From: a virus
DNA length: 64,000 bases
Virus record (IMG/VR): IMGVR_UViG_3300042549_010246
Location: 20,706 to 84,705 of that record
Direction: 5' to 3' (one strand)
The position numbers and the translations under genes were made by a program. The notes beneath the pieces are model-generated. The model was not told the DNA's origin. It saw only the letters and a program-made list of their open reading frames with translations, and did not search any database. Shown here piece after piece: positions 17,243-48,341 of the stretch (positions are counted from its first letter, which is position 1; each line of letters begins with the position of its first letter).

Positions 17243-17246
17243 AATT

Positions 17247-18071: not shown

Positions 18072-18082
18072 TTGTAATTGAA

Positions 18083-18577: not shown

Positions 18578-18578
18578 T

Positions 18579-27704: not shown

Positions 27705-27714
27705 AATTAAATAT

Positions 27715-29478: not shown

Positions 29479-31625
29479 GAATAGCACATATTCAACCAAG
29501 CGTAATTTCAGTCCCCCCTAACGGATGGGGGGCAATTGAAAAAATCATTTGGGAATACAAAATGGTTTTGAATCAGTTAGGACACGTCTGCGAAGTAGTC
29601 AATTTGCAGGATTTGAAGGCTGAAGAATGGGATATCATCCATTGCCATATGTTTGACCAAGCATTATGGTTGGCTGAACAAAAAGTTCCATATTTTTATT
29701 CGCACCACGACCATCATTCGATGGTTTGGGGTGAAGAAAGTGCTAATTATCAATTAAATCTAAAAGCAATGAGACTTGCTGAGATTGCCTTTGTTCACGC
29801 ACAAAGTAGTATTGAGATGTTTAAAAATATCCCTTATTATTTGAGTCACGGTGTGAATACTGAATTCTTTGATTTTATAAGGCCGAAAAATATTGATGAA
29901 CCGAATATTATTATTGTCGGGAACAATGGTTTGGCGGGAACTGAGCAAGTCTTTGACCGAAAAGGTTTCAGGTATGCAATTGAGGCCGCACGTGAATTAA
30001 AATGGACAATTACTATGGTTGGTCCCAAAGCAACCCAAGAACAGTTTCTGAAGGAAAATCCCGATTTGCAGTATGAAAAACTAAGGTTGGTTTTTGATGC
30101 GGACGAGGAGCGGTTGAAGAAAGAATTACAGAATGCTCATTTAATGATTCACGCTACGTTTGTAGAGGCAGGTCATCCACCTTTAACACCTTTGGAAGCA
30201 ATGTCTTGCGGGGTCCCTGTAATTGGTACACCAATGGGTATTGATGTGCCTCAAATAATATGTGAAAGAACTACCGAAAGCGTAGTAGAAGGAATTAAAC
30301 AATTCGTATTTCAAAGAAATTCATTAATTGCAGAAGCACGCCTAATTGCTGAAAATTACGATTGGAAAATTATTGTTGAAAATAATTTATTGAAATGGTA
30401 TTTTCAGGTCTTGGACCGAAACAATATGGCTAATACGGCCCGTAGAATTTACCATCAATCGACCATAAATAAAGTGCAAGACACTATGATGTTCAAGTAC
30501 TTAGATGGTGCGAGAGTGGATTTGGTTGGTAGTAGCGATAAAACGTATAAGGCCGAACTTTCGGTTCGGGATGAGCACTTAGGAATTATTTTCAGTGCAG
30601 ATTTAAAATGCGGTATGTATGCTCAGGGTGCAATGAAATATCATAGATATTGGGAATGGAAAATTACGGATGAAAAAGGGAACGAATTTTTACATCCATA
30701 TGATGCGACGGACAAACGTGTTTATGTGGCGATTGAAAGTTCAAGTTTAGGAGACTCTTTGGCTTGGGTCCCAATAGTTGATGAGTTTAGAAAGGTGCAC
30801 AATTGCAAAATGATTATCAGCACTTTTTGGAACGATATGTTCAGGGATGCATACCCTGAAATGGAATTTATCAGGGCGGGAACACCCGTTAATAATATTT
30901 ATGCAATGTACAGGATTGGTTGGTATTACGAGAACGACGGTTTAGAGGTACATTATGGACATCACTCACGCGATTTCCGCAAATTTTCTTTGCAAGGTAC
31001 AGCCTGTGATATTTTAGGTCTTCCTGACATCGAAATAAAACCAAAATTAAAGGAAATTGAAGGGCAAAAAAATGATAAAAAATATGTAGTTATTGCACCT
31101 CACGCTTCGAGCCATTGTAAATATTGGCACAACGAAGAAGGATGGTCTAAAGTTGTCGAATTTTTAAACGAGTTAGGTTATGAGGTTTGGAACATCTCAA
31201 AGGAGTCTGCATCAAGCGATTGGGAGAATTCTAAGTTGCCAAAAAATGCATTAAAAAACGTAATTGATAAGACGGGAGACATACATATAGACGAAAGGAT
31301 TTCTCAAATAAAATCCTCATCTTTGTTTATTGGATTAGGAAGCGGACTTTCTTGGTTGGCTTGGGCCTGTGATACACCTGTTGTTCTGATAAGTGGTTTC
31401 TCACGGCCTATAAGCGAATTTAGTGATTGCACCCGCGTTTTTAATCAAAATGTGTGTAATGGATGCTTTAACGATTACAGGCTTGACGCGGGTAATTGGA
31501 ATTGGTGCCCTAAATATGAAAATACTGACAAAATGTATGAATGCAGTAAGTCAATTACACCTGAACAGGTAATTGACGCAATTAGGAAAACACTAAACAA
31601 GCACCAAACAGCACCCGATGGCTAA
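29475..31625 (+). CDS. GT4-like glycosyltransferase fused to TibC/AAH-like (autotransporter O-heptosyltransferase family) domain
   Basis: N: PPNGWGAIEK, EAGHPPLTPLEAMSCGVPVI; C: SLGDSLAW, FIGLGSGLSWLAWA, VVLISGFS, CNGC...WCP...ECSKSIT. Confidence 0.8.
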   Translation: MRIAHIQPSVISVPPNGWGAIEKIIWEYKMVLNQLGHVCEVVNLQDLKAEEWDIIHCHMFDQALWLAEQKVPYFYSHHDHHSMVWGEESANYQLNLKAMRLAEIAFVHAQSSIEMFKNIPYYLSHGVNTEFFDFIRPKNIDEPNIIIVGNNGLAGTEQVFDRKGFRYAIEAARELKWTITMVGPKATQEQFLKENPDLQYEKLRLVFDADEERLKKELQNAHLMIHATFVEAGHPPLTPLEAMSCGVPVIGTPMGIDVPQIICERTTESVVEGIKQFVFQRNSLIAEARLIAENYDWKIIVENNLLKWYFQVLDRNNMANTARRIYHQSTINKVQDTMMFKYLDGARVDLVGSSDKTYKAELSVRDEHLGIIFSADLKCGMYAQGAMKYHRYWEWKITDEKGNEFLHPYDATDKRVYVAIESSSLGDSLAWVPIVDEFRKVHNCKMIISTFWNDMFRDAYPEMEFIRAGTPVNNIYAMYRIGWYYENDGLEVHYGHHSRDFRKFSLQGTACDILGLPDIEIKPKLKEIEGQKNDKKYVVIAPHASSHCKYWHNEEGWSKVVEFLNELGYEVWNISKESASSDWENSKLPKNALKNVIDKTGDIHIDERISQIKSSSLFIGLGSGLSWLAWACDTPVVLISGFSRPISEFSDCTRVFNQNVCNGCFNDYRLDAGNWNWCPKYENTDKMYECSKSITPEQVIDAIRKTLNKHQTAPDG

Positions 31626-34600
31626 AAACATTTTAATAACACCCTATAGGAATTCCACGAATCCTTTAGAGTTGCCGAAAATAGACTTTATTAATGGCTC
31701 GACTGCCATTACACTTCAAGTTGAAGAAACCTCACAGTCGTTAACTTTTGTTGGTTCTGCAGGCACACTGTTGCAAATCAATAATGATTTAACAGGCACG
31801 ACAATATCAACCAAAAACATTGCAATTACAGGTGTAATTAAAAACACAGGTATAACCTCGAATTCGGGGCTCAATGATTTTGTGGTAGTTGATATTGCTA
31901 CGGGTCAGTTTTATTACCGTAGTGCACCAACGGGCACTTCAGGTAGTTCAGGTCAAAGTGGAACAAGCGGAACCTCGGGAGCAAACGGCTCTTCGGGCAC
32001 CTCGGGAGCAAGCGGTTCAAGTGGTACTTCAGGAGCAAATGGCTCATCAGGTACTTCGGGAGCAAACGGCTCAAGTGGTACTTCAGGAGTGAACGGTACA
32101 TCGGGAACATCGGCATCAAGTGGTACATCAGGAGCAAATGGCTCTTCGGGTACTTCAGGTGATTCAGGTAGTTCAGGTACGTCAGGAGCAAATGGCTCAT
32201 CAGGCACTTCGGGAGCAAACGGTTCATCGGGAACATCGGGCGCAAACGGCTCAAGTGGAACATCGGGTAACTCGGGTTCATCGGGAACATCGGGTGCAAA
32301 TGGTTCATCAGGTACGTCAGGTGAAAGTGGTTCTTCAGGTACTTCAGGGTCGAATGGTTCATCAGGAACTTCGGGTTCAAGCGGAACTTCAGGGAACTCA
32401 GGCTCTTCAGGTACGTCGGGTGACTCAGGTTCTTCGGGTACTTCAGGTGCTAACGGCACTTCAGGAACTTCGGGTGAAAGTGGCTCAAGTGGAACATCGG
32501 GTAATTCAGGTTCGTCAGGAACATCGGGTAACTCAGGTTCATCAGGCACATCAGGAGCAAACGGTTCTTCGGGAACATCAGGTGCAAGTGGTGCAGAAAT
32601 TACAGATGGTTGGGATTGGGGAACTCCTGTTAACAGTACGAAAATGTATTCAAGTAATGGAAACTTGGATTCATCAACTGTATTATTAAATATTTCGGAA
32701 ACCTCTTTATCATTGACCGATTATGCAAGTCAATTTGCATTGATGGGAGTTGGGTCTCGAATCACTACAAGAGGGGGCCTTTTTGCGGCAAATGTTACAA
32801 ATTGGGAAGTTACCTCAGTTACAGATGCGGGAACGTATTACGAATTCGGAGTTGTATATCTTTCAGGTACACAATGGACTCCAACTTCAGGAGATGATAT
32901 TTTATGTGATTTTGCAATTGCAGGTAAATCGGGTTCAAGTGGAACAGCGGGTACCTCAGGGCAAAATGGCTCTTCGGGTACTTCAGGAGCGAATGGTACA
33001 TCAGGTACTGCAGGAACAACGGGTTCATCAGGTACTTCAGGTGCAGGTGTAGCAAACTATTATGCTCAATATAGCAGTAGCCAATCACAACCATTATTGG
33101 CTGTAAATACACCTCAGGTAGTTACTTATGACACGGTTGAAATTGAAAATGGTATTTCGTTTTCAGGTGGACAAATCACTGTTCAATACTCGGGTATTTA
33201 CGAATTTACTTTTTCTCCTCAAGTAGAAAAAACGCAAGGTGGTACAGCAGTAAACGTCGACTTTTTTATAAGGAAAAATGGCTTTGATGTTATTCGAACG
33301 GATTCAATACTCGGATTAGTATCTAATAGTTCGACACAACTTCCGTTTGTTGCATTGACGTTGGAATTATTGCAAAATGATTTTATTGAATTATTATTTG
33401 CATCAACCACCACCTTTGTACAGTTAACTGCGGTTGGCGCAAAGACAACACCATTTATTGCGCCCGCAGCACCATCAATTATTGTTTCATTGAAAAATAT
33501 TGGTGTAGCCGCAGTTGCATATACATCAACATCAGGTACTTCGGGTCAAAGTGGTACTGCGGGAGTTTCGGGGTCTTCAGGAACATCAGGTTCTACAGGT
33601 TCAAGCGGAACGTCAGGAGAAAGCGGCACAAGTGGTACATCAGGTTCTACAGGTTCAAGTGGTACATCGGGAGAAAATGGTTCAAGTGGAACTTCGGGTT
33701 CTACAGGTTCAAGCGGTACATCGGGAGAATCAGGTTCAAGCGGAACTTCAGGAGAAAACGGTTCAAGCGGAACTTCGGGTTCTGCAGGTTCAAGTGGAAC
33801 ATCAGGTTCTACAGGTTCAAGCGGAACTTCAGGAGAAAGCGGCTCAAGCGGTACATCAGGGTCTTCAGGAACATCGGCATCAAGTGGCACATCAGGTTCT
33901 ACAGGTTCGAGCGGTACATCGGGTTCTGCAGGTTCAAGTGGAACTTCAGGTTCTACAGGTTCATCAGGAACTTCAGGAGAAAGCGGCTCAAGTGGAACTT
34001 CAGGTTCTACAGGTTCATCAGGAACTTCAGGAGAAAGCGGCTCAAGCGGTACATCAGGTGAAAGTGGTTCAAGCGGTACATCAGGTGATAGCGGTTCAAG
34101 CGGAACTTCAGGAGAAAGCGGTTCAAGCGGAACTTCAGGAGAAAGCGGTTCAAGTGGAACTTCAGGAGAATCAGGTTCAAGTGGAACTTCAGGTACATCG
34201 GCATCGAGTGGAACGTCAGGTTCTACAGGTAGTTCGGGCACTTCGGGAGAAAATGGTTCAAGTGGAACGTCAGGTTCTACAGGGACTTCGGGTTCTTCAG
34301 GAAGTTCAGGTACTTCAGGAGAAAATGGCTCATCAGGTACAAGCGGTGAATCAGGAACCTCGGGAACTTCAGGTTCGAGCGGTAGTACGGGTACATCAGG
34401 TTCTGCGGGCACAAGTGGCAGCACAGGAACCTCAGGTTCTACAGGTTCATCAGGAACAAGCGGTTCTTCAGGTACTTCGGGCGAAAATGGCTCAAGCGGT
34501 ACTTCAGGTTCAGCGGGCTCAAGCGGCACTTCGGGCGAAAATGGCTCAAGTGGTACGTCAGGTTCATCAGGGACTTCGGGTTCTACAGGGACAAGCGGTG

Positions 34601-37600
34601 AATCAGGAACGTCGGGAACTGCGGGTTCAAGCGGTAGTACAGGTACATCAGGTTCTGCGGGCACAAGTGGTAGCACAGGTACTTCGGGTTCTGCGGGTTC
34701 AAGCGGAACAAGCGGCTCTTCAGGCACTTCGGGCGAAAATGGCTCAAGCGGTACTTCAGGTTCAACGGGCTCAAGCGGAACAAGCGGTAGCACAGGAACT
34801 TCAGGTTCTACGGGTACAAGTGGTTCAAGCGGTAGCACAGGCTCAAGTGGGTCTTCGGGCGAATCAGGAACTTCAGGTTCTACGGGCACTTCGGGTTCTA
34901 CAGGTTCTTCAGGAACAAGTGGTGAATCAGGAACATCAGGCACTACGGGTTCAAGCGGTTCGACAGGTTCTTCAGGAACGTCGGGCTCAAGTGGTACATC
35001 GGCATCAAGTGGAACGAGCGGCTCATCAGGTATAAATGGTTCTTCAGGAACTTCAGGAAGCACAGGTACTTCGGGTTCTGCAGGAACTTCAGGTGCAAAT
35101 GGCTCTTCAGGAACAAGCGGAAGCGCAGGTTCAAGTGGAACAAGTGGTTCTACGGGTTCTTCAGGCACTTCGGGTAGTTCAGGAACGTCCGCATCAAGCG
35201 GTTCAAGTGGTTCAAGCGGCTCTACGGGGTCAAGCGGAACTTCAGGTTCATCAGGAACTTCAGGCGCAAATGGCTCTTCAGGAACAAGCGGAAGTGCGGG
35301 TTCAAGTGGAACAAGCGGTTCAACAGGTTCTTCAGGGACATCAGGTTCAAGTGGTACATCCGCATCAAGCGGCTCAAGCGGTTCAACAGGTTCTTCAGGA
35401 ACATCAGGAAGCGCAGGCTCATCAGGAACTTCAGGCGCGAATGGTTCTTCAGGAACAAGCGGTTCATCAGCAACATCGGGTTCAGCAGGTTCAAGTGGTT
35501 CTGCGGGTACTTCAGGTAGTTCAGCAACATCAGGTTCTTCAGGGTCTTCAGGCACTTCAGGTAGTTCAGGTACCTCAGGGGCTAACGGTTCATCGGGAAC
35601 AAGTGGCTCATCAGGAACGAGTGGTTCTACAGGTTCAAGCGGCACATCGGGTGCCAATGGTTCATCGGGAACATCGGGTTCTTCAGGAACAAGCGGTTCT
35701 GCGGGTTCAAGTGGCTCTACAGGCTCATCGGGAACATCAGGCTCTTCAGGAACAAGTGGTTCTGCGGGGTCAAGTGGCTCTACGGGCTCTTCGGGAACAA
35801 GCGGCTCTTCGGGTTCAAGTGGAACATCAGGTGCAAATGGTTCGAGCGGAACTGCAGGTTCAAGTGGTACATCAGGTTCTTCAGGAACAAGCGGAAGCGC
35901 GGGTTCAAGTGGAACATCAGGTGCAAATGGCTCTTCAGGTACTGCAGGTTCGTCAGGAACAAGCGGAAGCGCAGGCTCAAGTGGTTCTGCAGGTACGTCG
36001 GGAGCAAATGGCTCTTCAGGGACTTCGGGTAGTTCAGGTTCAAGTGGCTCCACAGGTTCAAGTGGAACATCGGGAAGTTCAGGTTCTACAGGAACTTCAG
36101 GGTCTTCAGGAACATCGGCATCAAGTGGAACTTCAGGTTCTTCAGGAAGTGCAGGAACGTCAGGAGCAAATGGTTCTTCAGGAACATCAGGGTCAAGCGG
36201 TAGTTCGGGTTCAACAGGTTCGTCAGGAACATCGGGTGCAAATGGCTCATCGGGAACAAGTGGTTCTGCGGGTTCAAGTGGCTCTACAGGTTCTTCAGGA
36301 ACATCAGGGTCTTCAGGAACTTCAGGTTCTACAGGTTCAAGCGGTTCTGCAGGTACATCAGGTAGTTCGGCAACTTCAGGCTCTTCAGGTTCTTCAGGAA
36401 CAAGCGGAAGTGCAGGAACATCAGGTGCAAATGGCTCTTCAGGGACTTCGGGTTCATCAGGAACAAGCGGAAGCACGGGTTCAAGCGGTTCTGCGGGTAC
36501 ATCAGGTGCAAACGGCTCTTCGGGCACTTCAGGCTCCACAGGTTCAAGCGGAACTTCAGGTTCTGCAGGTTCAAGTGGTTCTACAGGCTCTTCAGGAACA
36601 TCGGGTTCTACAGGTTCAAGTGGTTCAACGGGCTCTTCAGGGACTTCGGGTTCATCAGGAACAAGCGGAAGCGCGGGTTCAAGCGGTTCTGCGGGCACTT
36701 CAGGTGCCAACGGCTCTTCAGGAACTTCAGGCTCTTCAGGTACAAGCGGAAACGCAGGCTCTTCAGGTACATCAGGTTCATCAGGCTCAAGTGGTTCTGC
36801 AGGGACAAGCGGTTCTACAGGTTCATCAGGAACAAGTGGCTCTGCAGGTTCAAGTGGAACATCAGGTTCAGCGGGTTCAAGTGGTTCAACAGGTTCCTCA
36901 GGTACTTCAGGCGCAAATGGCTCTTCAGGTACTTCAGGCTCTTCAGGAACTTCGGGAAGCACAGGTTCAAGTGGCTCTTCAGGGTCTACAGGCTCATCAG
37001 GAACTTCAGGTTCATCAGGAACGAGTGGTTCTACGGGTTCAAGCGGTTCTACAGGTTCTTCAGGAACAAGCGGTAGCGCAGGTTCATCGGGAACATCGGG
37101 CGCAAATGGTTCGAGCGGAACATCGGGCTCATCAGGAACTTCAGGGTCTACAGGTTCTTCAGGAACTGCAGGCTCATCAGGTACTTCAGGAACAAGAGGT
37201 TCTTCAGGTACAAGCGGAAGTACGGGTTCAAGTGGTTCTACAGGTTCTTCAGGTACTTCAGGCTCAAGCGGCACAAGTGGAAGCGCAGGCTCTTCGGGCT
37301 CTGCAGGTACTTCAGGTGCAAACGGGTCATCAGGAACGTCAGGTTCAAGCGGTACAAGTGGTAGCACGGGCTCAAGTGGTTCTTCAGGTTCTACAGGCAC
37401 TTCAGGAACGGCAGGCTCTTCAGGAACAAGTGGAAGCGCGGGTTCAAGCGGTTCAACAGGTTCTTCAGGGTCAAGCGGAACAGCAGGCTCGTCAGGAACA
37501 TCAGGAGCGAATGGGTCCTCAGGCACTTCAGGTTCAAGTGGTTCTTCAGGTTCAACAGGTTCTTCGGGAACATCAGGGTCTTCAGGAACAAGCGGAAGCG

Positions 37601-40600: not shown

Positions 40601-43600
40601 GAGCAAATGGTTCAAGTGGCTCAAGTGGAACAAGTGGTTCTTCAGGAAGCGCAGGTTCAACAGGGTCATCAGGTTCATCAGGAACTTCGGGTTCGAGCGG
40701 TACAAGTGGTTCAACAGGTTCAAGCGGCTCTACGGGCTCAAGTGGGTCTACGGGTACATCGGGTTCAAGCGGTTCAAGCGGAACTTCGGGAGTAAATGGT
40801 TCAAGTGGTTCATCAGGAACAAGTGGTAGTGCAGGTTCAAGTGGAACAAGTGGTTCTGCGGGTTCATCAGGAACATCAGGCTCTGCAGGCTCTTCGGGAA
40901 CTTCAGGCACAGCGGGTTCAAGTGGAACATCAGGAACACGTGGTTCTTCAGGTTCATCAGGCTCTACAGGTTCTTCAGGTACTTCGGGTTCATCAGGAAC
41001 AAGTGGTAGCACGGGTTCATCAGGCTCTACAGGTTCAAGCGGAACGTCGGGCTCATCAGGAACATCAGCATCAAGCGGAAGTTCAGGAAGCGCGGGTACA
41101 TCGGGCTCAAGCGGAACTTCAGGAGCAAATGGCTCGTCAGGTACTTCGGGCTCTTCAGGAAGTGCGGGCTCAAGCGGTTCAACAGGTTCTTCGGGCACAT
41201 CAGGCTCAAGCGGTACATCAGGAAGCGCGGGTTCAAGTGGTTCTACAGGTTCTTCGGGAACAAGCGGTAGCGCAGGTTCTTCAGGCACATCGGGTTCTGC
41301 AGGCTCGTCAGGCACGTCAGGTGCAAATGGCTCAAGTGGTACTTCGGGGTCTGCGGGTAGTGCGGGTTCATCGGGCTCTACGGGTTCATCAGGGACATCA
41401 GGTTCAAGCGGTACATCAGGAAGCGCAGGTTCTTCAGGCTCTACAGGTTCTTCAGGAACGAGTGGTAGCGCGGGTTCTTCAGGTACATCAGGTTCTGCGG
41501 GCTCTTCAGGCACATCAGGTGCAAACGGTTCAAGTGGTACAAGCGGAAGCGCAGGTTCAAGCGGTTCTACGGGTTCGAGCGGTACGAGCGGGTCAAGCGG
41601 AACAAGTGGTAGTACAGGTTCAAGCGGTTCAACAGGCTCAAGTGGAACAAGCGGAAGCACAGGCTCTTCAGGCACATCGGGCTCGGCAGGTTCTTCAGGA
41701 ACATCAGGCTCGGCAGGTTCTTCAGGAACATCAGGCACAGCAGGTTCGAGTGGTACTTCAGGAACACGTGGTTCTTCAGGTTCATCAGGTTCTACAGGAA
41801 CGAGCGGTTCAAGCGGAACAAGCGGTAGCACAGGTTCAAGCGGTTCAACGGGTTCGAGCGGAACAAGTGGAAGTACAGGTTCTTCAGGCTCTACAGGCTC
41901 AAGTGGAACATCAGGTTCAAGCGGAACAAGTGGAAGCACAGGTTCAAGCGGCTCAACGGGTTCAAGTGGTACTTCGGGTTCATCAGGAACATCAGCATCA
42001 AGCGGAAGTTCAGGAAGTGCGGGTACCTCAGGTAGTTCAGGCACTTCAGGGGCAAATGGGTCGAGTGGCTCAAGCGGAACAGCAGGTTCTTCAGGAAGCG
42101 CAGGTTCTTCGGGTTCTACAGGTTCTTCAGGAACAAGCGGTTCATCAGGAACAAGTGGTAGCGCAGGTTCTTCAGGCTCTACAGGCTCAAGCGGAACAAG
42201 CGGTAGCGCAGGTTCATCAGGCACATCGGGTTCTGCAGGCTCTTCAGGCACATCAGGTGCAAATGGTTCAAGTGGCACAAGCGGTTCAAGCGGAAGCGCA
42301 GGTTCTTCGGGTTCTACAGGAAGTTCAGGAACCTCAGGTTCAAGTGGCACAAGTGGTAGCACAGGTTCAAGCGGGTCAACAGGTTCAAGCGGAACGAGCG
42401 GTAGCGCAGGTTCTTCAGGAACATCAGGCTCGGCAGGTTCTTCAGGAACATCAGGCACAGCGGGCTCTTCAGGCACGTCAGGCACAGCAGGTTCAAGTGG
42501 TACTTCGGGAACACGTGGTTCTTCAGGTTCATCAGGTTCTACAGGAACAAGCGGTTCAAGCGGAACAAGTGGAAGCACAGGCTCAAGCGGCTCTACAGGC
42601 TCAAGTGGTACTTCGGGTTCGTCAGGAACATCGGCATCAAGTGGAAGTTCAGGAAGTGCGGGTACCTCAGGTAGTTCAGGCACTTCAGGGGCAAATGGCT
42701 CGAGTGGCTCAAGCGGAACATCAGGGTCTTCAGGAAGCGCAGGTTCTTCAGGTTCTACAGGTTCTTCGGGAACAAGCGGTTCATCAGGAACAAGTGGTAG
42801 CACGGGCTCAAGCGGTTCTACAGGCTCAAGTGGGTCTACGGGAACATCGGGCTCAAGCGGAACTTCAGGGGTAAATGGGTCAAGTGGTTCTTCAGGAACT
42901 TCGGGTTCTGCGGGCTCATCAGGAACGTCAGGTTCTGCGGGCTCTTCGGGAACGAGCGGAAGCGCAGGTTCAAGCGGAAGCACAGGTTCATCAGGTTCTA
43001 CAGGCTCATCAGGAACGTCGGGTTCTGCGGGCTCATCAGGAACGTCAGGTTCTGCGGGCTCTTCGGGAACTTCAGGCACAGCAGGTTCAAGTGGAACATC
43101 AGGAACTCGAGGTTCTTCAGGTTCATCAGGTTCTACAGGCACTTCAGGCTCAAGCGGAACAAGTGGAAGCACAGGTTCAAGCGGGTCAACGGGCTCAAGC
43201 GGAACAAGTGGAAGTACAGGTTCAAGCGGTTCGACAGGTTCAAGTGGAACAAGTGGAAGTACAGGTTCATCGGGTTCTACGGGTTCAAGCGGTACGAGTG
43301 GCTCATCAGGAACATCGGCATCAAGCGGAAGTTCAGGAAGTGCAGGTACGTCAGGTAGTTCAGGAACATCAGGAGCAAACGGCTCATCAGGCTCATCAGG
43401 AACTGCAGGTTCGTCAGGTAGCGCAGGTTCTACAGGTTCTTCAGGTTCCTCAGGAACTTCGGGTTCATCAGGAACAAGCGGAAGCGCGGGTTCAACAGGT
43501 TCATCGGGCTCAAGTGGGTCTACGGGAACATCGGGCTCAAGTGGCTCAAGCGGTACATCAGGTGCAAATGGCTCGAGCGGCTCAAGCGGAACAAGCGGTA

Positions 43601-46600
43601 GTGCGGGCTCATCAGGAACTTCGGGTTCTGCAGGCTCATCAGGAACGTCAGGTTCTGCAGGCTCTTCGGGAACTTCAGGTACAGCGGGGTCAAGTGGAAC
43701 GTCAGGAACGCGCGGTTCGTCAGGTTCATCAGGTTCAACGGGTTCTTCAGGAACTTCAGGCTCAAGCGGAACAAGTGGAAGTACAGGTTCATCAGGTTCA
43801 ACGGGTTCAAGCGGAACCTCAGGCTCATCAGGAACATCGGCATCAAGCGGAAGTTCAGGAAGCGCGGGAACATCGGGCTCAAGCGGAACTTCAGGGGCTA
43901 ATGGCTCGAGTGGAACAAGCGGTTCGAGCGGAAGCGCGGGTTCTTCAGGTAGCACAGGTTCATCGGGAACATCAGGCTCATCGGGTACGAGCGGAAGCAC
44001 GGGTTCTTCAGGTTCTACGGGTTCAAGCGGAACAGCGGGTTCAAGCGGTACTTCGGGTTCTTCAGGCTCAAGTGGCTCTGCAGGTACATCGGGCGCAAAT
44101 GGTTCTTCAGGAACTTCAGGTTCAAGTGGAAGCGCAGGCTCATCAGGGTCTACGGGCTCAAGCGGAACGAGTGGCTCTGCGGGTTCATCAGGAACAGCAG
44201 GAACTTCGGGGTCTTCGGGTACTTCAGGTACAGCAGGTTCAAGTGGTACTTCGGGTACACGGGGTTCATCAGGTTCTTCAGGGTCTACAGGAACTTCGGG
44301 TTCAAGCGGAACTTCAGGGGCAAATGGCTCAAGTGGAACGAGTGGCTCAAGTGGAAGCGCGGGCTCATCAGGCTCTACGGGCTCAAGCGGAACAAGTGGT
44401 AGCACGGGTTCTTCGGGCTCTACAGGGTCATCAGGAACAAGTGGTTCTTCAGGTACATCAGGCTCAAGCGGTAGCGCGGGTTCAAGCGGTAGCGCAGGAA
44501 CATCAGGAGCAAATGGCTCAAGTGGAACGAGTGGTTCTGCAGGAAGCGCAGGTTCTTCGGGTAGCACAGGTTCATCAGGAACTGCAGGTTCAAGTGGTAC
44601 GGCAGGTTCTTCGGGTAGTGCAGGCTCAAGCGGGTCTACGGGTTCAAGCGGAACTTCGGGTTCAAGTGGCTCATCAGGAACATCAGGAGCGAATGGCTCA
44701 AGCGGTTCAAGCGGAACAAGTGGTTCTGCGGGCTCTTCAGGCACATCAGGAACTGCAGGCTCAAGCGGAACATCAGGAACTCGAGGTTCTTCAGGTTCAT
44801 CAGGTTCTACAGGCTCAAGTGGGTCTACGGGTACGTCAGGCTCGAGCGGCTCAAGCGGAAGCGCGGGTACCTCAGGGGCAAACGGCTCAAGTGGTACAAG
44901 TGGGTCTTCAGGAAGTGCAGGTTCTACAGGGTCTTCGGGTTCATCAGGAACATCGGGTTCAAGCGGAACAAGCGGAAGTGCAGGTTCAAGCGGCTCTACA
45001 GGCTCAAGTGGCTCTACGGGCACTTCAGGCTCAAGTGGCTCGAGCGGAAGTGCAGGCACATCGGGTGCAAATGGCTCAAGTGGTACAAGTGGTTCTGCAG
45101 GAAGTGCGGGTTCAAGTGGGTCTACGGGTTCGTCAGGAACTGCAGGTTCCTCAGGAACGAGCGGTAGTGCGGGCTCAAGCGGCTCTACAGGCTCAAGTGG
45201 GTCTACAGGTACGTCAGGTTCCTCAGGCTCTTCAGGCACATCAGGAACTGCAGGTTCAAGCGGAACATCAGGAACTCGAGGTTCTTCAGGTTCTTCAGGT
45301 TCTACAGGCTCAAGTGGCTCTACGGGTACTTCAGGTTCAAGCGGAAGCGCGGGTACATCGGGTGCAAACGGTTCTTCAGGAACATCAGGCTCAAGCGGAA
45401 GTACAGGTTCAAGTGGCTCTACAGGGTCAAGTGGAACATCAGGTTCTTCAGGAAGTGCGGGTTCTACAGGTTCTTCAGGGTCTTCAGGAACAGCGGGTTC
45501 ATCAGGAACATCGGCATCAAGCGGAAGTTCAGGAAGCGCAGGTACTTCAGGGGCCAACGGTTCTTCGGGTACTTCGGGCTCATCAGGAAGCGCGGGTTCT
45601 ACGGGTTCATCAGGCTCAAGCGGAACAGCGGGCTCATCAGGAAGCGCAGGTTCAAGTGGTTCTACGGGTTCAAGCGGCACCGCAGGTTCAAGCGGAACTT
45701 CAGGTACACGCGGTTCATCAGGCTCAAGCGGTTCAGCGGGTACTTCAGGTGCGAATGGTTCAAGTGGTTCAAGCGGAACGAGTGGCTCTTCAGGAAGTGC
45801 AGGTTCAACAGGTTCGAGCGGTTCTACGGGTACATCAGGCTCAAGCGGCTCAAGTGGAACGAGCGGCTCTTCAGGAAGTGCAGGTTCAACAGGTTCGAGC
45901 GGTTCTACGGGTACATCAGGCTCAAGTGGCTCAAGTGGAAACACGGGTGCTGCGGGTTCATCAGGAACTTCGGGTTCTTCAGGAAGCGCAGGGTCAAGTG
46001 GTTCTACGGGTTCAAGCGGAACGAGCGGCTCATCAGGTAGCGCAGGCTCTACGGGTTCAAGCGGGTCTACGGGTACTTCAGGCTCAAGCGGCTCAAGCGG
46101 AAATACGGGTGCGGCAGGTTCTTCAGGAACGAGCGGCTCATCAGGTAGCGCAGGCTCTACGGGTTCTTCGGGTTCATCAGGAACTGCGGGTTCTTCAGGT
46201 ACGTCAGGTACAAGAGGTTCATCAGGCTCAAGTGGTTCTACGGGTTCAAGCGGCTCTACAGGTACGTCAGGCTCAAGCGGTTCAAGTGGAAACACGGGTG
46301 CGGCAGGTTCTTCAGGAACGAGCGGCTCATCAGGAAGCGCGGGTTCTACGGGTTCTTCAGGTTCTACGGGAACTTCGGGTTCGAGCGGTTCAAGTGGAAA
46401 CACGGGTGCGGCAGGTTCTTCAGGAACATCGGGCTCAAGCGGTTCGAGCGGTTCAAGTGGAAACACAGGTGCGGCAGGTTCTTCAGGAACATCGGGCTCA
46501 AGCGGGTCAAGCGGAAACACGGGTGCAGCGGGTTCTTCAGGTACTTCGGGCTCAAGCGGTTCAAGTGGAAACACAGGTGCGGCAGGTTCTTCAGGAACTT

Positions 46601-47634
46601 CGGGTTCGAGTGGAAACACAGGTGCAGCAGGTTCATCAGGAACATCGGGCTCAAGTGGAAACACGGGTGCTGCAGGTTCTTCAGGTACTTCGGGCTCAAG
46701 TGGAAACACAGGTGCAGCAGGTTCTTCAGGCACAAGTGGTGTTAGTGGTGCAGCGGGTTCTTCAGGCACAAGCGGTGTCAATGGTGCGGCAGGTTCTTCA
46801 GGAACTTCGGGCGCGAATGGTGCGGCAGGGTCATCGGGTACGTCAGGAACAAGAGGTTCTTCAGGAACATCAGGTGCAAACGGTGCGAACGGTTCATCGG
46901 GTACAAGCGGTGTCAATGGTGCGGCAGGTTCTTCAGGAACTTCGGGCGCGAATGGTGCGGCAGGGTCATCGGGTACGTCAGGAACAAGAGGTTCTTCAGG
47001 AACATCAGGTGCAAACGGTGCGAACGGTTCATCGGGTACAAGCGGTGCAAACGGTGCAGCGGGTTCTTCAGGAACGTCAGGCTCAAGTGGTAATACAGGT
47101 GCTGCAGGTTCTTCAGGTACGAGCGGTACGAGCGTAGCCGTGAGCGGTACAACAAACAGAATCGTTAAGTTTACGGCATCTACGACCATAGGTAACGCAA
47201 ACGCGTCCGACGATGGAACGACATTCGAAGTCTTGAATACAGTTGGATTTAAGGCGGCCAAGTCGTTAGCAGTAGGTGCTTTGTCACCGTCAGCAACCAC
47301 AGGTCGAATTGATGCTTCAAACGACATCGTAGCGTTCTCTACATCAGACAAACGCTTCAAAGAAAACGTGAAGCGAATTGAAAACGCCCTCGAGAAAATC
47401 AAGACAATCGGTGGATACTCATTCGATTGGCGCGAGGAAGGCTTCGAGGCTCACGGATTCAAGGGAAGTGATGTCGGAGTAATCGCGCAAGAAATCGAGT
47501 CAGTGTTGCCCGAAATCGTGAAGGTAAAAGCAAACGGATTCAAGGGTGTACGTTATGAAAAAATCATCGCCTTGGTAATTGAAGCAATCAAGGAGTTGGA
47601 TGATAAAGTGGAAAAACTAAAAAACAATCAATAA
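31618..47634 (+). CDS. giant 5338-aa Gly-X-Y (Ser/Thr) fibre with internal C1q/BclA-like domain and C-terminal peptidase S74 chaperone
   Basis: Gly at nearly every third residue; TYDTV..NGIS...QITVQYSGIYEFTFS domain; SDKRFKENV...GVIAQEIE..LPEIV...VRYEKII..IEAIKEL. Confidence 0.85.
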   Translation: MAKNILITPYRNSTNPLELPKIDFINGSTAITLQVEETSQSLTFVGSAGTLLQINNDLTGTTISTKNIAITGVIKNTGITSNSGLNDFVVVDIATGQFYYRSAPTGTSGSSGQSGTSGTSGANGSSGTSGASGSSGTSGANGSSGTSGANGSSGTSGVNGTSGTSASSGTSGANGSSGTSGDSGSSGTSGANGSSGTSGANGSSGTSGANGSSGTSGNSGSSGTSGANGSSGTSGESGSSGTSGSNGSSGTSGSSGTSGNSGSSGTSGDSGSSGTSGANGTSGTSGESGSSGTSGNSGSSGTSGNSGSSGTSGANGSSGTSGASGAEITDGWDWGTPVNSTKMYSSNGNLDSSTVLLNISETSLSLTDYASQFALMGVGSRITTRGGLFAANVTNWEVTSVTDAGTYYEFGVVYLSGTQWTPTSGDDILCDFAIAGKSGSSGTAGTSGQNGSSGTSGANGTSGTAGTTGSSGTSGAGVANYYAQYSSSQSQPLLAVNTPQVVTYDTVEIENGISFSGGQITVQYSGIYEFTFSPQVEKTQGGTAVNVDFFIRKNGFDVIRTDSILGLVSNSSTQLPFVALTLELLQNDFIELLFASTTTFVQLTAVGAKTTPFIAPAAPSIIVSLKNIGVAAVAYTSTSGTSGQSGTAGVSGSSGTSGSTGSSGTSGESGTSGTSGSTGSSGTSGENGSSGTSGSTGSSGTSGESGSSGTSGENGSSGTSGSAGSSGTSGSTGSSGTSGESGSSGTSGSSGTSASSGTSGSTGSSGTSGSAGSSGTSGSTGSSGTSGESGSSGTSGSTGSSGTSGESGSSGTSGESGSSGTSGDSGSSGTSGESGSSGTSGESGSSGTSGESGSSGTSGTSASSGTSGSTGSSGTSGENGSSGTSGSTGTSGSSGSSGTSGENGSSGTSGESGTSGTSGSSGSTGTSGSAGTSGSTGTSGSTGSSGTSGSSGTSGENGSSGTSGSAGSSGTSGENGSSGTSGSSGTSGSTGTSGESGTSGTAGSSGSTGTSGSAGTSGSTGTSGSAGSSGTSGSSGTSGENGSSGTSGSTGSSGTSGSTGTSGSTGTSGSSGSTGSSGSSGESGTSGSTGTSGSTGSSGTSGESGTSGTTGSSGSTGSSGTSGSSGTSASSGTSGSSGINGSSGTSGSTGTSGSAGTSGANGSSGTSGSAGSSGTSGSTGSSGTSGSSGTSASSGSSGSSGSTGSSGTSGSSGTSGANGSSGTSGSAGSSGTSGSTGSSGTSGSSGTSASSGSSGSTGSSGTSGSAGSSGTSGANGSSGTSGSSATSGSAGSSGSAGTSGSSATSGSSGSSGTSGSSGTSGANGSSGTSGSSGTSGSTGSSGTSGANGSSGTSGSSGTSGSAGSSGSTGSSGTSGSSGTSGSAGSSGSTGSSGTSGSSGSSGTSGANGSSGTAGSSGTSGSSGTSGSAGSSGTSGANGSSGTAGSSGTSGSAGSSGSAGTSGANGSSGTSGSSGSSGSTGSSGTSGSSGSTGTSGSSGTSASSGTSGSSGSAGTSGANGSSGTSGSSGSSGSTGSSGTSGANGSSGTSGSAGSSGSTGSSGTSGSSGTSGSTGSSGSAGTSGSSATSGSSGSSGTSGSAGTSGANGSSGTSGSSGTSGSTGSSGSAGTSGANGSSGTSGSTGSSGTSGSAGSSGSTGSSGTSGSTGSSGSTGSSGTSGSSGTSGSAGSSGSAGTSGANGSSGTSGSSGTSGNAGSSGTSGSSGSSGSAGTSGSTGSSGTSGSAGSSGTSGSAGSSGSTGSSGTSGANGSSGTSGSSGTSGSTGSSGSSGSTGSSGTSGSSGTSGSTGSSGSTGSSGTSGSAGSSGTSGANGSSGTSGSSGTSGSTGSSGTAGSSGTSGTRGSSGTSGSTGSSGSTGSSGTSGSSGTSGSAGSSGSAGTSGANGSSGTSGSSGTSGSTGSSGSSGSTGTSGTAGSSGTSGSAGSSGSTGSSGSSGTAGSSGTSGANGSSGTSGSSGSSGSTGSSGTSGSSGTSGSAGSSGSTGSSGSSGTAGSSGTSASSGSAGTSGSSGTSGANGSSGTSGSAGSSGTSGSSGSAGTSGINGSSGTSGSSGTSGSSGSSGSTGSSGTSGSAGSSGSTGSSGSSGTAGSSGTSGANGSSGTSGSAGSSGTSGSSGTSGTAGSSGTSGTRGSSGTSGSTGSSGSTGSSGTSGSSGTSGANGSSGTSGSSGTSGSAGSSGTSGSSGTSGSTGSSGSTGSSGTSGSAGSSGTSGSAGSSGTSGANGSSGTSGSAGSSGSTGSSGTSGSSGTSGSAGSSGSTGSSGTSGSAGSSGSTGSSGSSGTAGSSGTSGANGSSGTSGSSGSAGSSGSTGSSGTSGSSGTSGSTGSSGSTGSSGTSGSSGTSASSGSSGTSGSAGSSGTSGANGSSGTSGSAGSAGSSGSTGSSGTSGSSGTSGSTGSSGSTGSSGTSGSSATSGSAGSSGTAGSSGSSGTSGANGSSGTSGSAGSTGSSGTSGSSGTSGTAGSSGTSGTAGSSGTSGTRGSSGTSGSTGSSGSTGSSGTSGSSGTSGANGSSGTSGSSGSAGSSGSTGSSGTSGSSGTSGSTGSSGSTGSSGTSGSSATSGSAGSSGTSGSAGSSGTSGANGSSGTSGSAGSSGSTGSSGTSGSSGTSGSAGSSGSTGSSGTSGSAGSSGTSGSAGSSGSAGSSGTSGANGSSGTSGSAGSSGSTGSSGTSGSSGTSGSTGSSGSTGSSGTSGSAGSSGTSASSGSSGSAGTSGSSGTSGANGSSGTSGSAGSAGSSGSTGSSGTSGSSGTSGSTGSSGSTGSSGTSGSSGTSGSAGSSGTSGSSGTSGTAGSSGTSGTRGSSGTSGSTGSSGSTGSSGSTGTSGSSGSSGTSGANGSSGTSGSAGSSGSTGSSGTSGSSGTSGSAGSSGSTGSSGTSGSSATSGSAGSSGTAGSSGSSGTSGANGSSGSSGTSGSSGSSGSTGSSGTSGSSGTSGSAGSSGSTGSSGTSGSSGTSASSGSSGSAGTSGSSGTSGANGSSGSSGTSGSSGSAGSTGSSGSSGTSGSSGTSGSTGSSGSTGSSGSTGTSGSSGSSGTSGVNGSSGSSGTSGSAGSSGTSGSAGSSGTSGSAGSSGTSGTAGSSGTSGTRGSSGSSGSTGSSGTSGSSGTSGSTGSSGSTGSSGTSGSSGTSASSGSSGSAGTSGSSGTSGANGSSGTSGSSGSAGSSGSTGSSGTSGSSGTSGSAGSSGSTGSSGTSGSAGSSGTSGSAGSSGTSGANGSSGTSGSAGSAGSSGSTGSSGTSGSSGTSGSAGSSGSTGSSGTSGSAGSSGTSGSAGSSGTSGANGSSGTSGSAGSSGSTGSSGTSGSSGTSGSTGSSGSTGSSGTSGSTGSSGTSGSAGSSGTSGSAGSSGTSGTAGSSGTSGTRGSSGSSGSTGTSGSSGTSGSTGSSGSTGSSGTSGSTGSSGSTGSSGTSGSSGTSGSTGSSGSTGSSGTSGSSGTSASSGSSGSAGTSGSSGTSGANGSSGSSGTAGSSGSAGSSGSTGSSGTSGSSGTSGSAGSSGSTGSSGTSGSAGSSGTSGSAGSSGTSGANGSSGTSGSSGSAGSSGSTGSSGTSGSSGTSGSTGSSGSTGSSGTSGSAGSSGTSGSAGSSGTSGTAGSSGTSGTAGSSGTSGTRGSSGSSGSTGTSGSSGTSGSTGSSGSTGSSGTSGSSGTSASSGSSGSAGTSGSSGTSGANGSSGSSGTSGSSGSAGSSGSTGSSGTSGSSGTSGSTGSSGSTGSSGSTGTSGSSGTSGVNGSSGSSGTSGSAGSSGTSGSAGSSGTSGSAGSSGSTGSSGSTGSSGTSGSAGSSGTSGSAGSSGTSGTAGSSGTSGTRGSSGSSGSTGTSGSSGTSGSTGSSGSTGSSGTSGSTGSSGSTGSSGTSGSTGSSGSTGSSGTSGSSGTSASSGSSGSAGTSGSSGTSGANGSSGSSGTAGSSGSAGSTGSSGSSGTSGSSGTSGSAGSTGSSGSSGSTGTSGSSGSSGTSGANGSSGSSGTSGSAGSSGTSGSAGSSGTSGSAGSSGTSGTAGSSGTSGTRGSSGSSGSTGSSGTSGSSGTSGSTGSSGSTGSSGTSGSSGTSASSGSSGSAGTSGSSGTSGANGSSGTSGSSGSAGSSGSTGSSGTSGSSGTSGSTGSSGSTGSSGTAGSSGTSGSSGSSGSAGTSGANGSSGTSGSSGSAGSSGSTGSSGTSGSAGSSGTAGTSGSSGTSGTAGSSGTSGTRGSSGSSGSTGTSGSSGTSGANGSSGTSGSSGSAGSSGSTGSSGTSGSTGSSGSTGSSGTSGSSGTSGSSGSAGSSGSAGTSGANGSSGTSGSAGSAGSSGSTGSSGTAGSSGTAGSSGSAGSSGSTGSSGTSGSSGSSGTSGANGSSGSSGTSGSAGSSGTSGTAGSSGTSGTRGSSGSSGSTGSSGSTGTSGSSGSSGSAGTSGANGSSGTSGSSGSAGSTGSSGSSGTSGSSGTSGSAGSSGSTGSSGSTGTSGSSGSSGSAGTSGANGSSGTSGSAGSAGSSGSTGSSGTAGSSGTSGSAGSSGSTGSSGSTGTSGSSGSSGTSGTAGSSGTSGTRGSSGSSGSTGSSGSTGTSGSSGSAGTSGANGSSGTSGSSGSTGSSGSTGSSGTSGSSGSAGSTGSSGSSGTAGSSGTSASSGSSGSAGTSGANGSSGTSGSSGSAGSTGSSGSSGTAGSSGSAGSSGSTGSSGTAGSSGTSGTRGSSGSSGSAGTSGANGSSGSSGTSGSSGSAGSTGSSGSTGTSGSSGSSGTSGSSGSAGSTGSSGSTGTSGSSGSSGNTGAAGSSGTSGSSGSAGSSGSTGSSGTSGSSGSAGSTGSSGSTGTSGSSGSSGNTGAAGSSGTSGSSGSAGSTGSSGSSGTAGSSGTSGTRGSSGSSGSTGSSGSTGTSGSSGSSGNTGAAGSSGTSGSSGSAGSTGSSGSTGTSGSSGSSGNTGAAGSSGTSGSSGSSGSSGNTGAAGSSGTSGSSGSSGNTGAAGSSGTSGSSGSSGNTGAAGSSGTSGSSGNTGAAGSSGTSGSSGNTGAAGSSGTSGSSGNTGAAGSSGTSGVSGAAGSSGTSGVNGAAGSSGTSGANGAAGSSGTSGTRGSSGTSGANGANGSSGTSGVNGAAGSSGTSGANGAAGSSGTSGTRGSSGTSGANGANGSSGTSGANGAAGSSGTSGSSGNTGAAGSSGTSGTSVAVSGTTNRIVKFTASTTIGNANASDDGTTFEVLNTVGFKAAKSLAVGALSPSATTGRIDASNDIVAFSTSDKRFKENVKRIENALEKIKTIGGYSFDWREEGFEAHGFKGSDVGVIAQEIESVLPEIVKVKANGFKGVRYEKIIALVIEAIKELDDKVEKLKNNQ
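33529..47133 (+). repeat. about 13.6 kb of degenerate 9-nt (Gly-X-Y) coding repeat
   Basis: GSS/GTS/GST/GSA/GAN triplets with synonymous scrambling. Confidence 0.95.
46768..47047 (+). repeat. exact 135-bp tandem duplication
   Basis: 46768-46902 identical to 46903-47037. Confidence 0.85.
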
Positions 47635-48311
47635 TGGCAGTTCCATCATCAAACATAAGTATGACGGCTATCTATCAGGAGGCGAACGCAGGTTCGCCTC
47701 CATCAGATTTAGCGGTGAGCGACTTATTCAAAAAATCATATTTTGAAAGTAATGCATTTGGTGGCTCCCTTACATTTAATGCTTGGGGACAATATGGGAA
47801 TGCGAGTGGAGCAGATAGGATTTATGGATTAAGTGCAAGTGATACCAATAACAATTTCAATCAGTTTGCGTCAAAAGTTTATTATATGGATAATTCAACT
47901 TATGCAAACTATGTAGATATTATTAATAATTTGAGTCCCCCCGCTCCCCCCGCGCCTCCTTTTGATAATGACATTGATGTATTTTGTAGATTATATGATT
48001 CTACAGGTACACATATTTATAGTTCATTTTTCCAAAGCGTATTTGCAGGTGGAAGTGTATCGCAAATATTCAGTAATACCACTGAACCGATTTTGGCAGT
48101 AGCATATTGGGAGGTTCAGTTTCAGCCTGTCAGTGGAAGTTTTGGTGGTACAACTTGTAATATTGGCATCAATAATACAAGTGTAGTAAGTGGTGGAACT
48201 ATTAATGCAACAGGTATTACAACTTTTGATTTCAGCACTTTAGGAAGCGTAGCAGTAGGCTCAAGTTCGTCAGGGTATATTGGTACTTACTTTGATATTA
48301 GTATTGGTTGA
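47634..48311 (+). CDS. putative structural protein downstream of fibre
   Basis: MAVPSSNISMTAIYQE N-term of the kind often seen after fibre genes; S/T/G-rich beta C-domain. Confidence 0.6.
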   Translation: MAVPSSNISMTAIYQEANAGSPPSDLAVSDLFKKSYFESNAFGGSLTFNAWGQYGNASGADRIYGLSASDTNNNFNQFASKVYYMDNSTYANYVDIINNLSPPAPPAPPFDNDIDVFCRLYDSTGTHIYSSFFQSVFAGGSVSQIFSNTTEPILAVAYWEVQFQPVSGSFGGTTCNIGINNTSVVSGGTINATGITTFDFSTLGSVAVGSSSSGYIGTYFDISIG

Positions 48312-48341
48312 TTAAATTTGTACAAAATTAAATATGTAATT

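Follow-up and report, generated by a model that had tools for sequence, protein, structure and literature searches.

We analyzed a 64,000-nucleotide stretch of DNA (hereafter the window; positions 20,706 to 84,705 of the IMG/VR record IMGVR_UViG_3300042549_010246) from an uncultured lake-water bacterial virus, whose record is 84,705 bp long and 100% complete by CheckV. The subject of this analysis is a single open reading frame (ORF) of 5338 codons at 31618-47634 on the plus strand, taken from a program-made ORF list of the window, which encodes a very long, proline-free collagen-like protein that we call the fibre. The gene fills 25.0% of the window, the share that an earlier note on this DNA had given for it, and 18.9% of the genome. 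The predicted chain has a mass of 438 kDa, carries about 2630 Ser/Thr residues and contains 1599 Gly-X-Y triplets spread over three segments. The parts of the fibre are listed below, with identities to the fibres of the related viruses G001, G006 and G009.

31618..31932, plus strand: N-terminal domain, residues 1-105; 98/105 residues identical in G001, 58% identity in G006 and 46% in G009; no Pfam family.
31933..32598, plus strand: Gly-X-Y segment 1, 74 triplets, one with Ala in place of Gly; 117.6 bits with Pfam Collagen.
32599..32922, plus strand: globular knot 1, residues 328-435; 86/108 residues identical in G001, 74% identity in G009; no Pfam family.
32923..33048, plus strand: Gly-X-Y segment 2, 14 triplets.
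33049..33534, plus strand: TNF/C1q/BclA-like jelly-roll knot (knot 2), residues 478-639, assigned from an AlphaFold2 (AF2) model, Foldseek and a trimer model.
33535..47133, plus strand: main Gly-X-Y array, residues 640-5172, 1511 triplets; 451-470 bits with Pfam Collagen on three 1000-aa pieces.
47134..47346, plus strand: distal tip, residues 5173-5243 (71 residues), the predicted mature C-terminus after self-cleavage; it precedes the S74 motif.
47347..47631, plus strand: S74 intramolecular chaperone, residues 5244-5338 (95 residues), PF13884.

The main array (4533 residues) consists of 1511 contiguous triplets, 1489 of which begin with Gly and 22 with Ala; its register is never shifted and it contains no indel. 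Segment 1 (residues 106-327) adds 73 Gly and 1 Ala triplet and segment 2 (residues 436-477) adds the rest, so that all 23 non-Gly first positions of the three segments are Ala, within ASS or ATS triplets. The longest run with Gly or Ala at every third residue was 1511, compared to a mean of 8.3 and a maximum of 14 in 200 shuffled proteins. Pfam Collagen (PF01391) matched all four segments tested at 117.6-469.6 bits against a cut-off of 27.2. Over the 1599 triplets the X and Y positions are 65% Ser, 22% Thr, 9% Ala and 3% Asn; Pro occupies none of the 3198 positions (0.0%), and the 15 Pro of the fibre all lie in its globular parts. The earlier note had described about 1500 triplets in Gly-X-Y register, a collagen-type repeat free of Pro, and Ala standing in for Gly with no change of register, and all of this held on counting.

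We further examined the composition of the main array by position. The X positions hold 926 Ser, 470 Thr, 73 Ala, 20 Glu, 12 Asn, 6 Val, 2 Ile, 1 Gln and 1 Asp, and the Y positions 1046 Ser, 192 Ala, 188 Thr, 69 Asn and 16 Arg. The array thus lacks Lys and contains 16 Arg and 21 acidic residues but not a single [KR]G[DE] pair, and neither of the usual collagen stabilisers, Pro or hydroxyproline at X/Y and Lys-Asp/Glu salt bridges, is present in it. Every Arg stands at Y (16/16) and every Glu at X (20/20), a collagen-like positional habit that may have been inherited together with the repeat unit. All four Gly codons are in use (GGT 711, GGA 406, GGC 296, GGG 76). The G+C content climbs to 53-56% over the fibre gene, which is accounted for by the codons of Gly, Ser, Thr and Ala and is not a mark of foreign origin.

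In pursuing how the array has evolved, we compared the gene with its orthologue in G001, a virus about 90% identical that was recovered in another assembly (locus L002). The G001 fibre has the same architecture in 4183 aa, with 1141 contiguous triplets and 17 Ala for Gly, and 143/162 residues of its knot 2 and 163/166 of its C-terminus are identical to those described here. The two genes align in 14 colinear blocks of 74-97% nucleotide identity, and wherever the offset from one block to the next is not zero (13 cases) it is a multiple of 9 nt. Across 1142 aligned codons of the array we counted 265 synonymous and 20 non-synonymous differences. Gly codons differed 94 times synonymously and never non-synonymously; the corresponding counts were 90 and 4 for X codons and 81 and 16 for Y codons, and the amino-acid replacements stayed within Ser, Thr and Ala except for one Arg to Ala change. 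These comparisons show strong purifying selection on the protein read in frame 1, which turns an earlier guess of strong selection into a measurement. They further show that the array is old and diverged and not the product of a recent run-away expansion. In G006, a third virus of the same clade, the same enzyme cassette is followed by an open frame of at least 4412 aa that reaches near the end of the contig. Near position 19402 of the G006 locus (L050, G006:C1:22000-41805) this giant frame stops in a short non-repeat string and Gly-X-Y continues in another frame to the contig end, which reflects either a frameshift or an assembly error.

The array contains some regularities above the level of the triplet. 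GTR triplets occur 16 times between residues 1860 and 5124, and their spacing mostly shrinks toward the C-terminus, from 288-351 to 144-213 residues (with one of 45); the pattern suggests a higher-order repeat with units that shorten toward the tip. Ala-for-Gly triplets are present in many, not all, of the GTR-to-GTR intervals. Other long frames overlap the array and were rejected as genes. A 4618-aa antisense frame (33546-47402, minus strand) reads as a Pro/Glu/Ala-rich string and is a mirror artefact of the repeat, the synonymous-dominated divergence fitting frame 1, and the second-frame ORFs on the forward strand (33515-35035, 35036-37798, 37799-40795, 40796-42874 and 42875-47137) are likewise mirror products of a codon-level repeat. 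Such frames could mislead gene callers.

We modelled knot 2 (residues 478-639) with AF2 from an alignment of nine viral homologues and obtained a mean predicted local distance difference test (pLDDT) score of 82.7. Foldseek matched the model at a probability of 1.00 (TMq 0.48-0.68, E 1e-7 to 1e-5), with the cyanophage tail fibre 9k09_A, BxpB/ExsFA, 4-1BBL, the C1q domain of cerebellin (Cbln1) and BclA at the top. By this modelling the knot is confirmed, at the fold level, as a TNF/C1q-like ten-strand jelly roll. A C1q/BclA-like domain at about 33050-33525 had been proposed from the letters alone, and the fold comparison bears this out, with the Pfam cut-off missed: the match to C1q (PF00386) reached E 0.044 and 14.4 bits against 23.7, and BclA_C (PF18573) was touched by 2 of 10 sampled relatives of the knot, below its 38-bit cut-off. 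Designed ‘Pizza’ propellers returned by the PDB profile search were dismissed as spurious sums of weak repeats. A three-copy model of residues 433-720 scored 0.91 by ipSAE, compared to 0.00 for the best of three controls, and passed a mark that 21 of 30 proteins solved as same-chain pairs reach, as against none of 23 solved as single chains. The three-copy runs shared at least 58% of their contacts at a partner pLDDT of at least 62; confident contacts fell in residues 480-628 and at residue 441, and the Gly-X-Y flanks were not confidently placed, which leaves the model uninformative on the triple helix. The model therefore favours a trimeric knot 2, although resemblance to C1q/TNF trimers of solved structure may be all that the score reflects.

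The knot is widespread. It was carried by 12 viral loci at 54-88% identity and matched 5803 cluster representatives at E<=1e-3 (2901 at E<=1e-10); among the best 150 matches many lay at the C-terminal end of their protein, and none of these 150 proteins exceeded 2545 aa. No knot-bearing relative of 2935-9342 aa was found in the large protein database, which says little because that collection also lacks this fibre and the 4183-aa orthologue. A search among shorter proteins gave 8 matches. In the related fibres found through the knot (n=8) and two database proteins, Pro made up 0.0% and Ser plus Thr 70-90% of X/Y. Knot 2 was also seen inside fibre proteins of 1900-2700 aa that lack collagen repeats (P0006, P0007 and P0008), with many ‘SHAEG’-type repeats (PF05658 on P0008); its presence there marks it as a mobile fibre module. 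A PHROG scan of the genes beside the fibres of L003 and L005 returned only families without known function.

At the other end of the protein, the Peptidase_S74 family (PF13884) matched with E 1.1e-16 and 61.2 bits against a cut-off of 22. The best solved relatives were PDB 6f45_A, the distal subunit of the phage S16 long tail fibre (E 4e-12), and the tail fibre protein 8jov_1, with whose pre-chaperone part the distal tip also aligns. Together these matches establish the S74 chaperone that had been placed at the C-terminus. Its start motif, S5243-DKRFK, pairs with SDRRIK of 6f45_A and follows the Ser-Asp-x-Arg-x-Lys pattern. Cleavage is predicted to follow Ser5243, as in the endosialidase literature. 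The N-terminal domain is presumed to be the virion anchor. For this domain and knot 1 the nearest clusters in the Protein Atlas held only viral hypothetical proteins; a T4_gp9_10_N label on 33% of one Atlas cluster (score 0.89) is noted as a lead only.

The fibre gene lies in a block of seven head-to-tail genes with overlapping stops and starts (24080-48311, plus strand). Its other members are as follows.

24080..24964, plus strand: a second, small collagen-like protein of 294 aa, encoded at the start of the block; Pfam Collagen E 2.7e-17, PHROG tail-fibre/collagen-like.
24961..25728, plus strand: 255-aa protein, function not assigned; phrog_28536 and phrog_17490 (unknown function).
25725..27704, plus strand: GT1/GT4-type glycosyltransferase fused to an FkbM methyltransferase, 659 aa; Glycos_transf_1 4.8e-8, Methyltransf_21 6.2e-13, TIGR01444 81.4 bits against 37.7.
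27715..29478, plus strand: FkbM-family methyltransferase protein, 587 aa; Methyltransf_21 9.9e-14, TIGR01444 67.1 bits against 37.7 (C-terminal half without assignment).
29475..31625, plus strand: fusion of a GT1 domain and a TibC/Aah-family protein O-heptosyltransferase, 716 aa; TIGR04414, PDB 4rap_A.
47634..48311, plus strand: 225-aa protein without a match in Pfam or PHROG; start codon overlapping the stop of the fibre gene (TAATG); a 79% identical protein is encoded at the corresponding position in G001.

The gene directly upstream of the fibre encodes the enzyme of greatest interest, and its last 8 nt overlap the start of the fibre gene. Its TibC-like half aligned with TibC itself (PDB 4rap_A, E 4.5e-54, residues 337-705 on 23-385 of 406) and scored 302.5 bits against the cut-off of 200 with the equivalog TIGR04414, covering model positions 7-373 of 374. 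Counted in the alignment, it keeps the equivalents of the catalytic Asp110 and of the four iron-finger Cys (339, 342, 358 and 370), residues that a passage of PMC4358343 names as essential in TibC. By these sequence features the viral domain is a true member of the TibC/Aah family, whose enzymes take heptose from ADP-heptose to Ser of a neighbour protein and form a dodecameric ring, and heptose transfer is predicted for it. The same source describes TibC as hyper-heptosylating serines of an adhesin encoded beside its own gene (PMC4358343). As judged from the cassette, it is most likely that the upstream enzymes coat the fibre with sugars. The idea that the fibre might depend on glycosylation, put forward before any search was made, has thus gained a protein O-glycosyltransferase of TIGR04414 grade that overlaps the fibre start codon and co-occurs with such fibres. 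No close relative of the TibC-like half was found in bacterial genome contigs by a method that reaches close relatives only, and blastn with 25000-31600 found nothing in the phage collection.

We then asked how constant the pairing of fibre and enzyme is. The clade was defined as genomes sharing a 233-aa coat candidate at 47-91% identity, and seven were examined. In G000, G001, G006 and G009 a Gly-X-Y fibre with the same N-terminal domain was found with a TIGR04414 gene directly upstream (4/4), and in G007, G008 and G010 the S74, Pfam Collagen and TIGR04414 matches were absent together (3/3). In G007 and G010 a six-frame scan showed no Gly-X-Y run reaching 8 triplets. CheckV rates these three genomes 86% (G007), 47% (G008) and 100% (G010) complete, and at that level G008 carries little weight. 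Viral contigs searched with the TibC-like half gave seven loci, namely G001 and six others at 36-38% identity, which form two lineages by ORF layout. Two of the six (L021 and L025) are cut too near the match to judge; in the four that can be assessed (L022, L023, L024 and L026) a Ser/Thr Gly-X-Y protein is encoded upstream on the same strand (4/4). In L023 and L024 the fibre frame spans at least 1697 aa with 430 triplets and the enzyme is the same fusion of GT1 and TibC-like parts; the L023 fibre has 2 Pro in 860 X/Y positions. The 255-aa protein also travels with the cassette, being encoded just upstream in G001 (91%), G006 (72%; truncated where the locus begins) and G009 (55%).

A further observation concerns this 255-aa protein. 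In G007 a 603-aa ORF (L059, G007:C1:38001-58000, about 13951-19377) begins with some 45 residues that are 52% identical to its start; the ORF lies about 5 kb upstream of a homologue of window positions 48596-49069. From the sequences, the common N-terminus may be a docking piece with exchangeable bodies.

In view of these results, we propose, with somewhat more confidence than doubt, that the product is an accessory fibre of the virion: a collagen-like trimer, stabilised by sugars, whose folding starts from a cleavable chaperone at its C-terminus. The sequence work establishes the gene and its frame, the constraint acting on it, the identity of its domains, the family of the enzyme and the linkage of the genes; triple helix, sugars, folding direction, docking on the virion and function are inferred. 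A structure with Gly packed into a tight core is indicated by the Gly periodicity under selection, by the replacement of Gly by Ala only (22/22), by length changes in whole triplets and by the three-fold devices at either end. The S74 chaperone would gather three 438-kDa chains at their C-termini, and a triple helix would zip from there toward the N-terminus through the 1511 triplets until the TNF/C1q-like knot locks the trimer. Beyond knot 2 would follow two shorter helices and a second knot, and the 105-residue N-terminal domain would then dock on the particle. The chaperone would finally cut itself off after Ser5243, leaving the 71-residue tip. Without Pro, the folding fibre would be spared the slow step of prolyl isomerisation. 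The abstract of PMC11923368 describes collagen helices as nucleating at the C-terminus and zipping to the N-terminus, which fits a C-terminal chaperone that is discarded afterwards.

Sugars would supply what the composition lacks. The array is without both known stabilisers, which makes the protein O-glycosyltransferase cassette the natural candidate stabiliser. According to PMC11923368, (Gly-Pro-Thr)10 is a coil unless its Thr is galactosylated. The three upstream enzymes, above all the TibC/Aah-type protein O-heptosyltransferase, would add O-linked and partly methylated sugars to Ser/Thr and so make the helix stable, stiff and resistant to proteases. For a rise of 0.286 nm per residue, the computed contour lengths of the three helices are 64, 12 and 1296 nm; by the persistence lengths of such helices, the mean reach of a flexible helix of about 1.3 micrometre would be only a few hundred nanometres. 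As a role, we rank long-range first contact with scarce hosts or their appendages ahead of a glycan cloak. Since G010 and G007 are without the module, the fibre is an optional appendage, not needed for basic infectivity and not an essential receptor-binding device. The fullest form of the proposal, in which the array is one continuous micrometre-scale triple helix, with no Pro or salt bridges, held by dense O-glycosylation from viral TibC-type enzymes, folding fast from a throw-away chaperone and worn as an optional add-on, is put forward only tentatively and we hold it to be doubtful.

Several points weigh against this proposal. The triple helix of the array is a prediction; the Gly-X-Y flanks were not confidently placed in our own model, and Ser is a poor triple-helix former. 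The N-terminal domain belongs to no family recognised by Pfam or the Atlas and is a putative virion anchor only. Relatives with complete or near-complete genomes lack the fibre (G010, 100%; G007, 86%). The known TibC substrates (PMC4358343) are beta-helix adhesins, not collagen repeats. Lastly, among the Logan contigs of runs X1-X4, searched against 31000-48500, none spans the array; a flanking contig of 35,049 b stops at 32394, and the order and number of the units rest on one assembly.

The composition would also suit a mucin-like, O-glycosylated bottle-brush with no continuous helix, its chains joined only at the knots and the C-terminal end, that would act as glycan hair or a shield. Such a brush would explain why Ser or Thr fill 87% of X/Y and why a hyper-glycosylating enzyme family adjoins the fibre; it also fits the lack of Pro and salt bridges in the array and Gly-X-Y flanks that were not confidently modelled, and a glycan shield on mycobacteriophage capsids is reported in a passage of PMC11256854 (citing Freeman 2023). 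A brush needs no Gly at every third residue, yet it is precisely the Gly codons that changed 94 times synonymously and never otherwise, over 1511 triplets in which no indel breaks the register, only Ala replaces Gly (22/22) and length changes come in whole triplets; we therefore consider the brush unlikely. The Gly periodicity itself could also be met by folding the array back into a compact polyglycine-II bundle of the kind seen in the snow-flea antifreeze protein or the S16 gp38 sandwich, giving a short thick body. Gly at every third residue and small side chains fit that fold too, and the best solved match of the S74 domain is the S16 fibre tip entry 6f45. Proteins with polyglycine-II bundles consist of short Gly-rich helices joined by regularly spaced turns. 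The array shows no regular turn signal (the autocorrelation of Thr, Ala and Asn has no period beyond 3, with weak values of at most 0.20, although this is a weak test) and has no Pro or Gly-Gly turn in 4533 residues, and both of its ends bear three-fold devices. We hold the bundle to be improbable.

Two further alternatives concern the length and the place of the protein. Strain mixtures or mis-joined repeats might have inflated a shorter array during assembly: no public contig crosses it, hundreds of repeat-induced joints occur in it, the G006 frame changes near its contig end, and in 6 of 12 related loci (L004, L008, L009, L010, L011 and L013) the fibre frame runs into the end of the contig. 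With sides of only 19-28 letters, the joints are repeat noise. Exact repeats of 150 nt or more are absent from the fibre gene and those of at least 125 nt occur at one place only, and unique internal pieces (e.g. 35331-35839, 36994-37554, 41208-41568 and 44785-45285) were recovered among Logan contigs with 0 differences in up to four lake-water runs, at a depth in run X1 of 38.0-43.3 against 34.8 in the flank. The fibre frame measures 4183 aa and at least 4412 aa in two other assemblies, and the orthologue differs by 265 synonymous changes in colinear blocks. Near-identical sequence recurs in lake water, 20 of 22 sequencing runs containing 48-83% of the words sampled from 38000-47900. Summed contig depths in the array are unreadable as copy number and the contig data neither confirm nor refute the length; with no spanning contig, the exact length rests on one assembly and two giant relatives, and it is the pieces and the giant scale of the fibre that the sequence data support. 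An assembly artefact appears improbable to us. Because public assemblies seem to break inside such repeats, fibres of this kind are probably under-counted and truncated in protein databases. Least probable of all, in our estimate, is a protein that never enters the particle and is made in the infected cell as a surface or matrix coat or a decoy. The accessory status of the module in the clade would allow this, but PMC12220804 reports S74 chaperones from the fibres and spikes of both phages and polinton-like viruses, the structural matches of the knot include phage tail-fibre domains, and the gene stands in one co-directional block downstream of candidate particle genes.

The proposed virion fibre combines features of several known systems. 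The exosporium protein BclA of Bacillus, with its partners BxpB/ExsFA, likewise has an N-terminal anchor, a Gly-X-Y filament with sugars on its Thr and a TNF/C1q-like trimeric knob, but its repeats contain Pro (GPT) and number tens of triplets ending in the knob. The viral fibre has 1511 Pro-free triplets and TibC-type enzymes, and its knob is internal, near the N-terminus (478-639 of 5338), with 4533 repeat residues and S74 behind it, so that it lacks the C-terminal knob of BclA. Glycosylation of BclA is stated in a passage of PMC8968730. The S74-bearing tail fibres and spikes of the endosialidase type that phages carry (phage S16 gp37, 6f45) share with the present fibre a C-terminal PF13884 domain and the SD(K/R)R motif; in the solved cases the chaperone folds a triple beta-helix, whereas here S74 follows a 4533-residue Gly-X-Y array and the 71-residue tip. 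Collagen repeats fused to S74 are described for polinton-like virus fibres of up to 3.9k aa (PMC12220804), compared to which the present fibre is longer at 5338 aa. TibC-TibA and Aah-AIDA-I of E. coli (PDB 4RAP/4RB4) offer the same enzyme family in a gene that adjoins one for a serine-rich repetitive surface protein, which the enzyme hyper-glycosylates. They differ in that the presumed substrate here is a collagen repeat and not a beta-helix, and that the enzyme is viral, fused to GT1 and accompanied by two FkbM proteins.

Among collagens, the cuticle collagen of the vent worm Riftia reaches a length of 1.5 micrometre. Its chain has Pro and is secreted through the endoplasmic reticulum, whereas the viral array is Pro-free and favours Ser over Thr. 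The positions that stabilise the worm protein are given as glycosylated Thr and not hydroxyproline in a passage of PMC11923368 (citing Mann 1996). The same source puts prokaryotic collagen-like proteins at up to about 2000 triplets, with Thr-rich triplets common in bacteria and viruses, and reports KGE/KGD salt bridges as a proposed universal folding code for collagen (PMC11923368); an array with no Lys and no [KR]G[DE] pair falls outside that mechanism. Glycosyltransferases in the fibre regions of aquatic phages are read, in passages of PMC7029224 and PMC10202952, as acting on host lipopolysaccharide or DNA. Our search found no literature that links heptosyltransferase, collagen-like and phage or that describes such fibres, subscription journals and supplementary tables being outside its reach; the supplementary tables of PMC11923368 and PMC12220804 may list similar proteins. 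Collagen-like filaments of phages and exosporia, TNF/C1q knobs, S74 chaperones, hyper-glycosylation of the TibC type and glycosylated mycobacteriophage capsids are thus known kinds. What is unusual is a Pro-free and salt-bridge-free array of 1511 triplets, the internal knob, a TibC-type enzyme as presumed modifier of a collagen repeat, and an optional 24-kb module in an 85-kb virus.

If the sugar-stabilised helix is real, collagen would be able to fold with neither Pro, hydroxyproline nor Lys-Asp/Glu clamps, by a third stabilisation that uses sugars only, and the array would be among the longest uninterrupted triple helices known. The module would then offer a simple, genetically encoded set of fibre, chaperone and three enzymes with which very long, glycosylated threads of collagen type could be produced in bacteria. 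Lake phages would be spending up to a fifth of their genome on an optional appendage, and glycosyltransferases in phage fibre regions would have to be considered as virion-modifying enzymes.

We also looked for features of the particle and of gene expression elsewhere in the genome. Neither Terminase_6N nor the HK97-capsid Pfam family matched in the genome, and none of 30 ORFs scanned with PHROG hit a tail, portal or terminase family; with no tailed-phage hallmark found, we speak of a virion fibre and not of a tail fibre. The model of the 233-aa coat candidate was poor (pLDDT 57.3), and Foldseek returned nothing for it at E<=0.001, giving only weak jelly-roll-like rows; a 273-aa ATPase candidate had no match in the PDB sequence search. 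Promoter and terminator scans gave counts no higher than in shuffles, and a tRNA scan found tRNA-Met only, with no Gly or Ser tRNA.

Other collagen-like and sugar-handling genes were noted in the genome. The 294-aa protein at the head of the block has about 41 Pro-free triplets of the GTS/GSS type with some Asp/Lys, and is 90% identical in G001. A third Pro-free collagen-like protein of 476 aa (G000:C1:17020-18450, L018) has a (Gly-Ser-Gln)n run of at least 41 triplets. The first 21 kb (L018) contain more glycosyltransferase genes, at G000 3141-3851 (minus), 10974-11609 (plus) and 12555-13781 (plus), with a weak one at 501-1265 (minus), and another FkbM gene lies outside the window at G000 4429-5262 (minus); sugar-handling genes are unusually dense in this genome. 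Outside the fibre module, a DUF2958 and RelA/SpoT-domain protein (7333-8448), a RecT-like annealing protein (50841-51626) and the tRNA-Met (63207-63279) fit a bacterial host.

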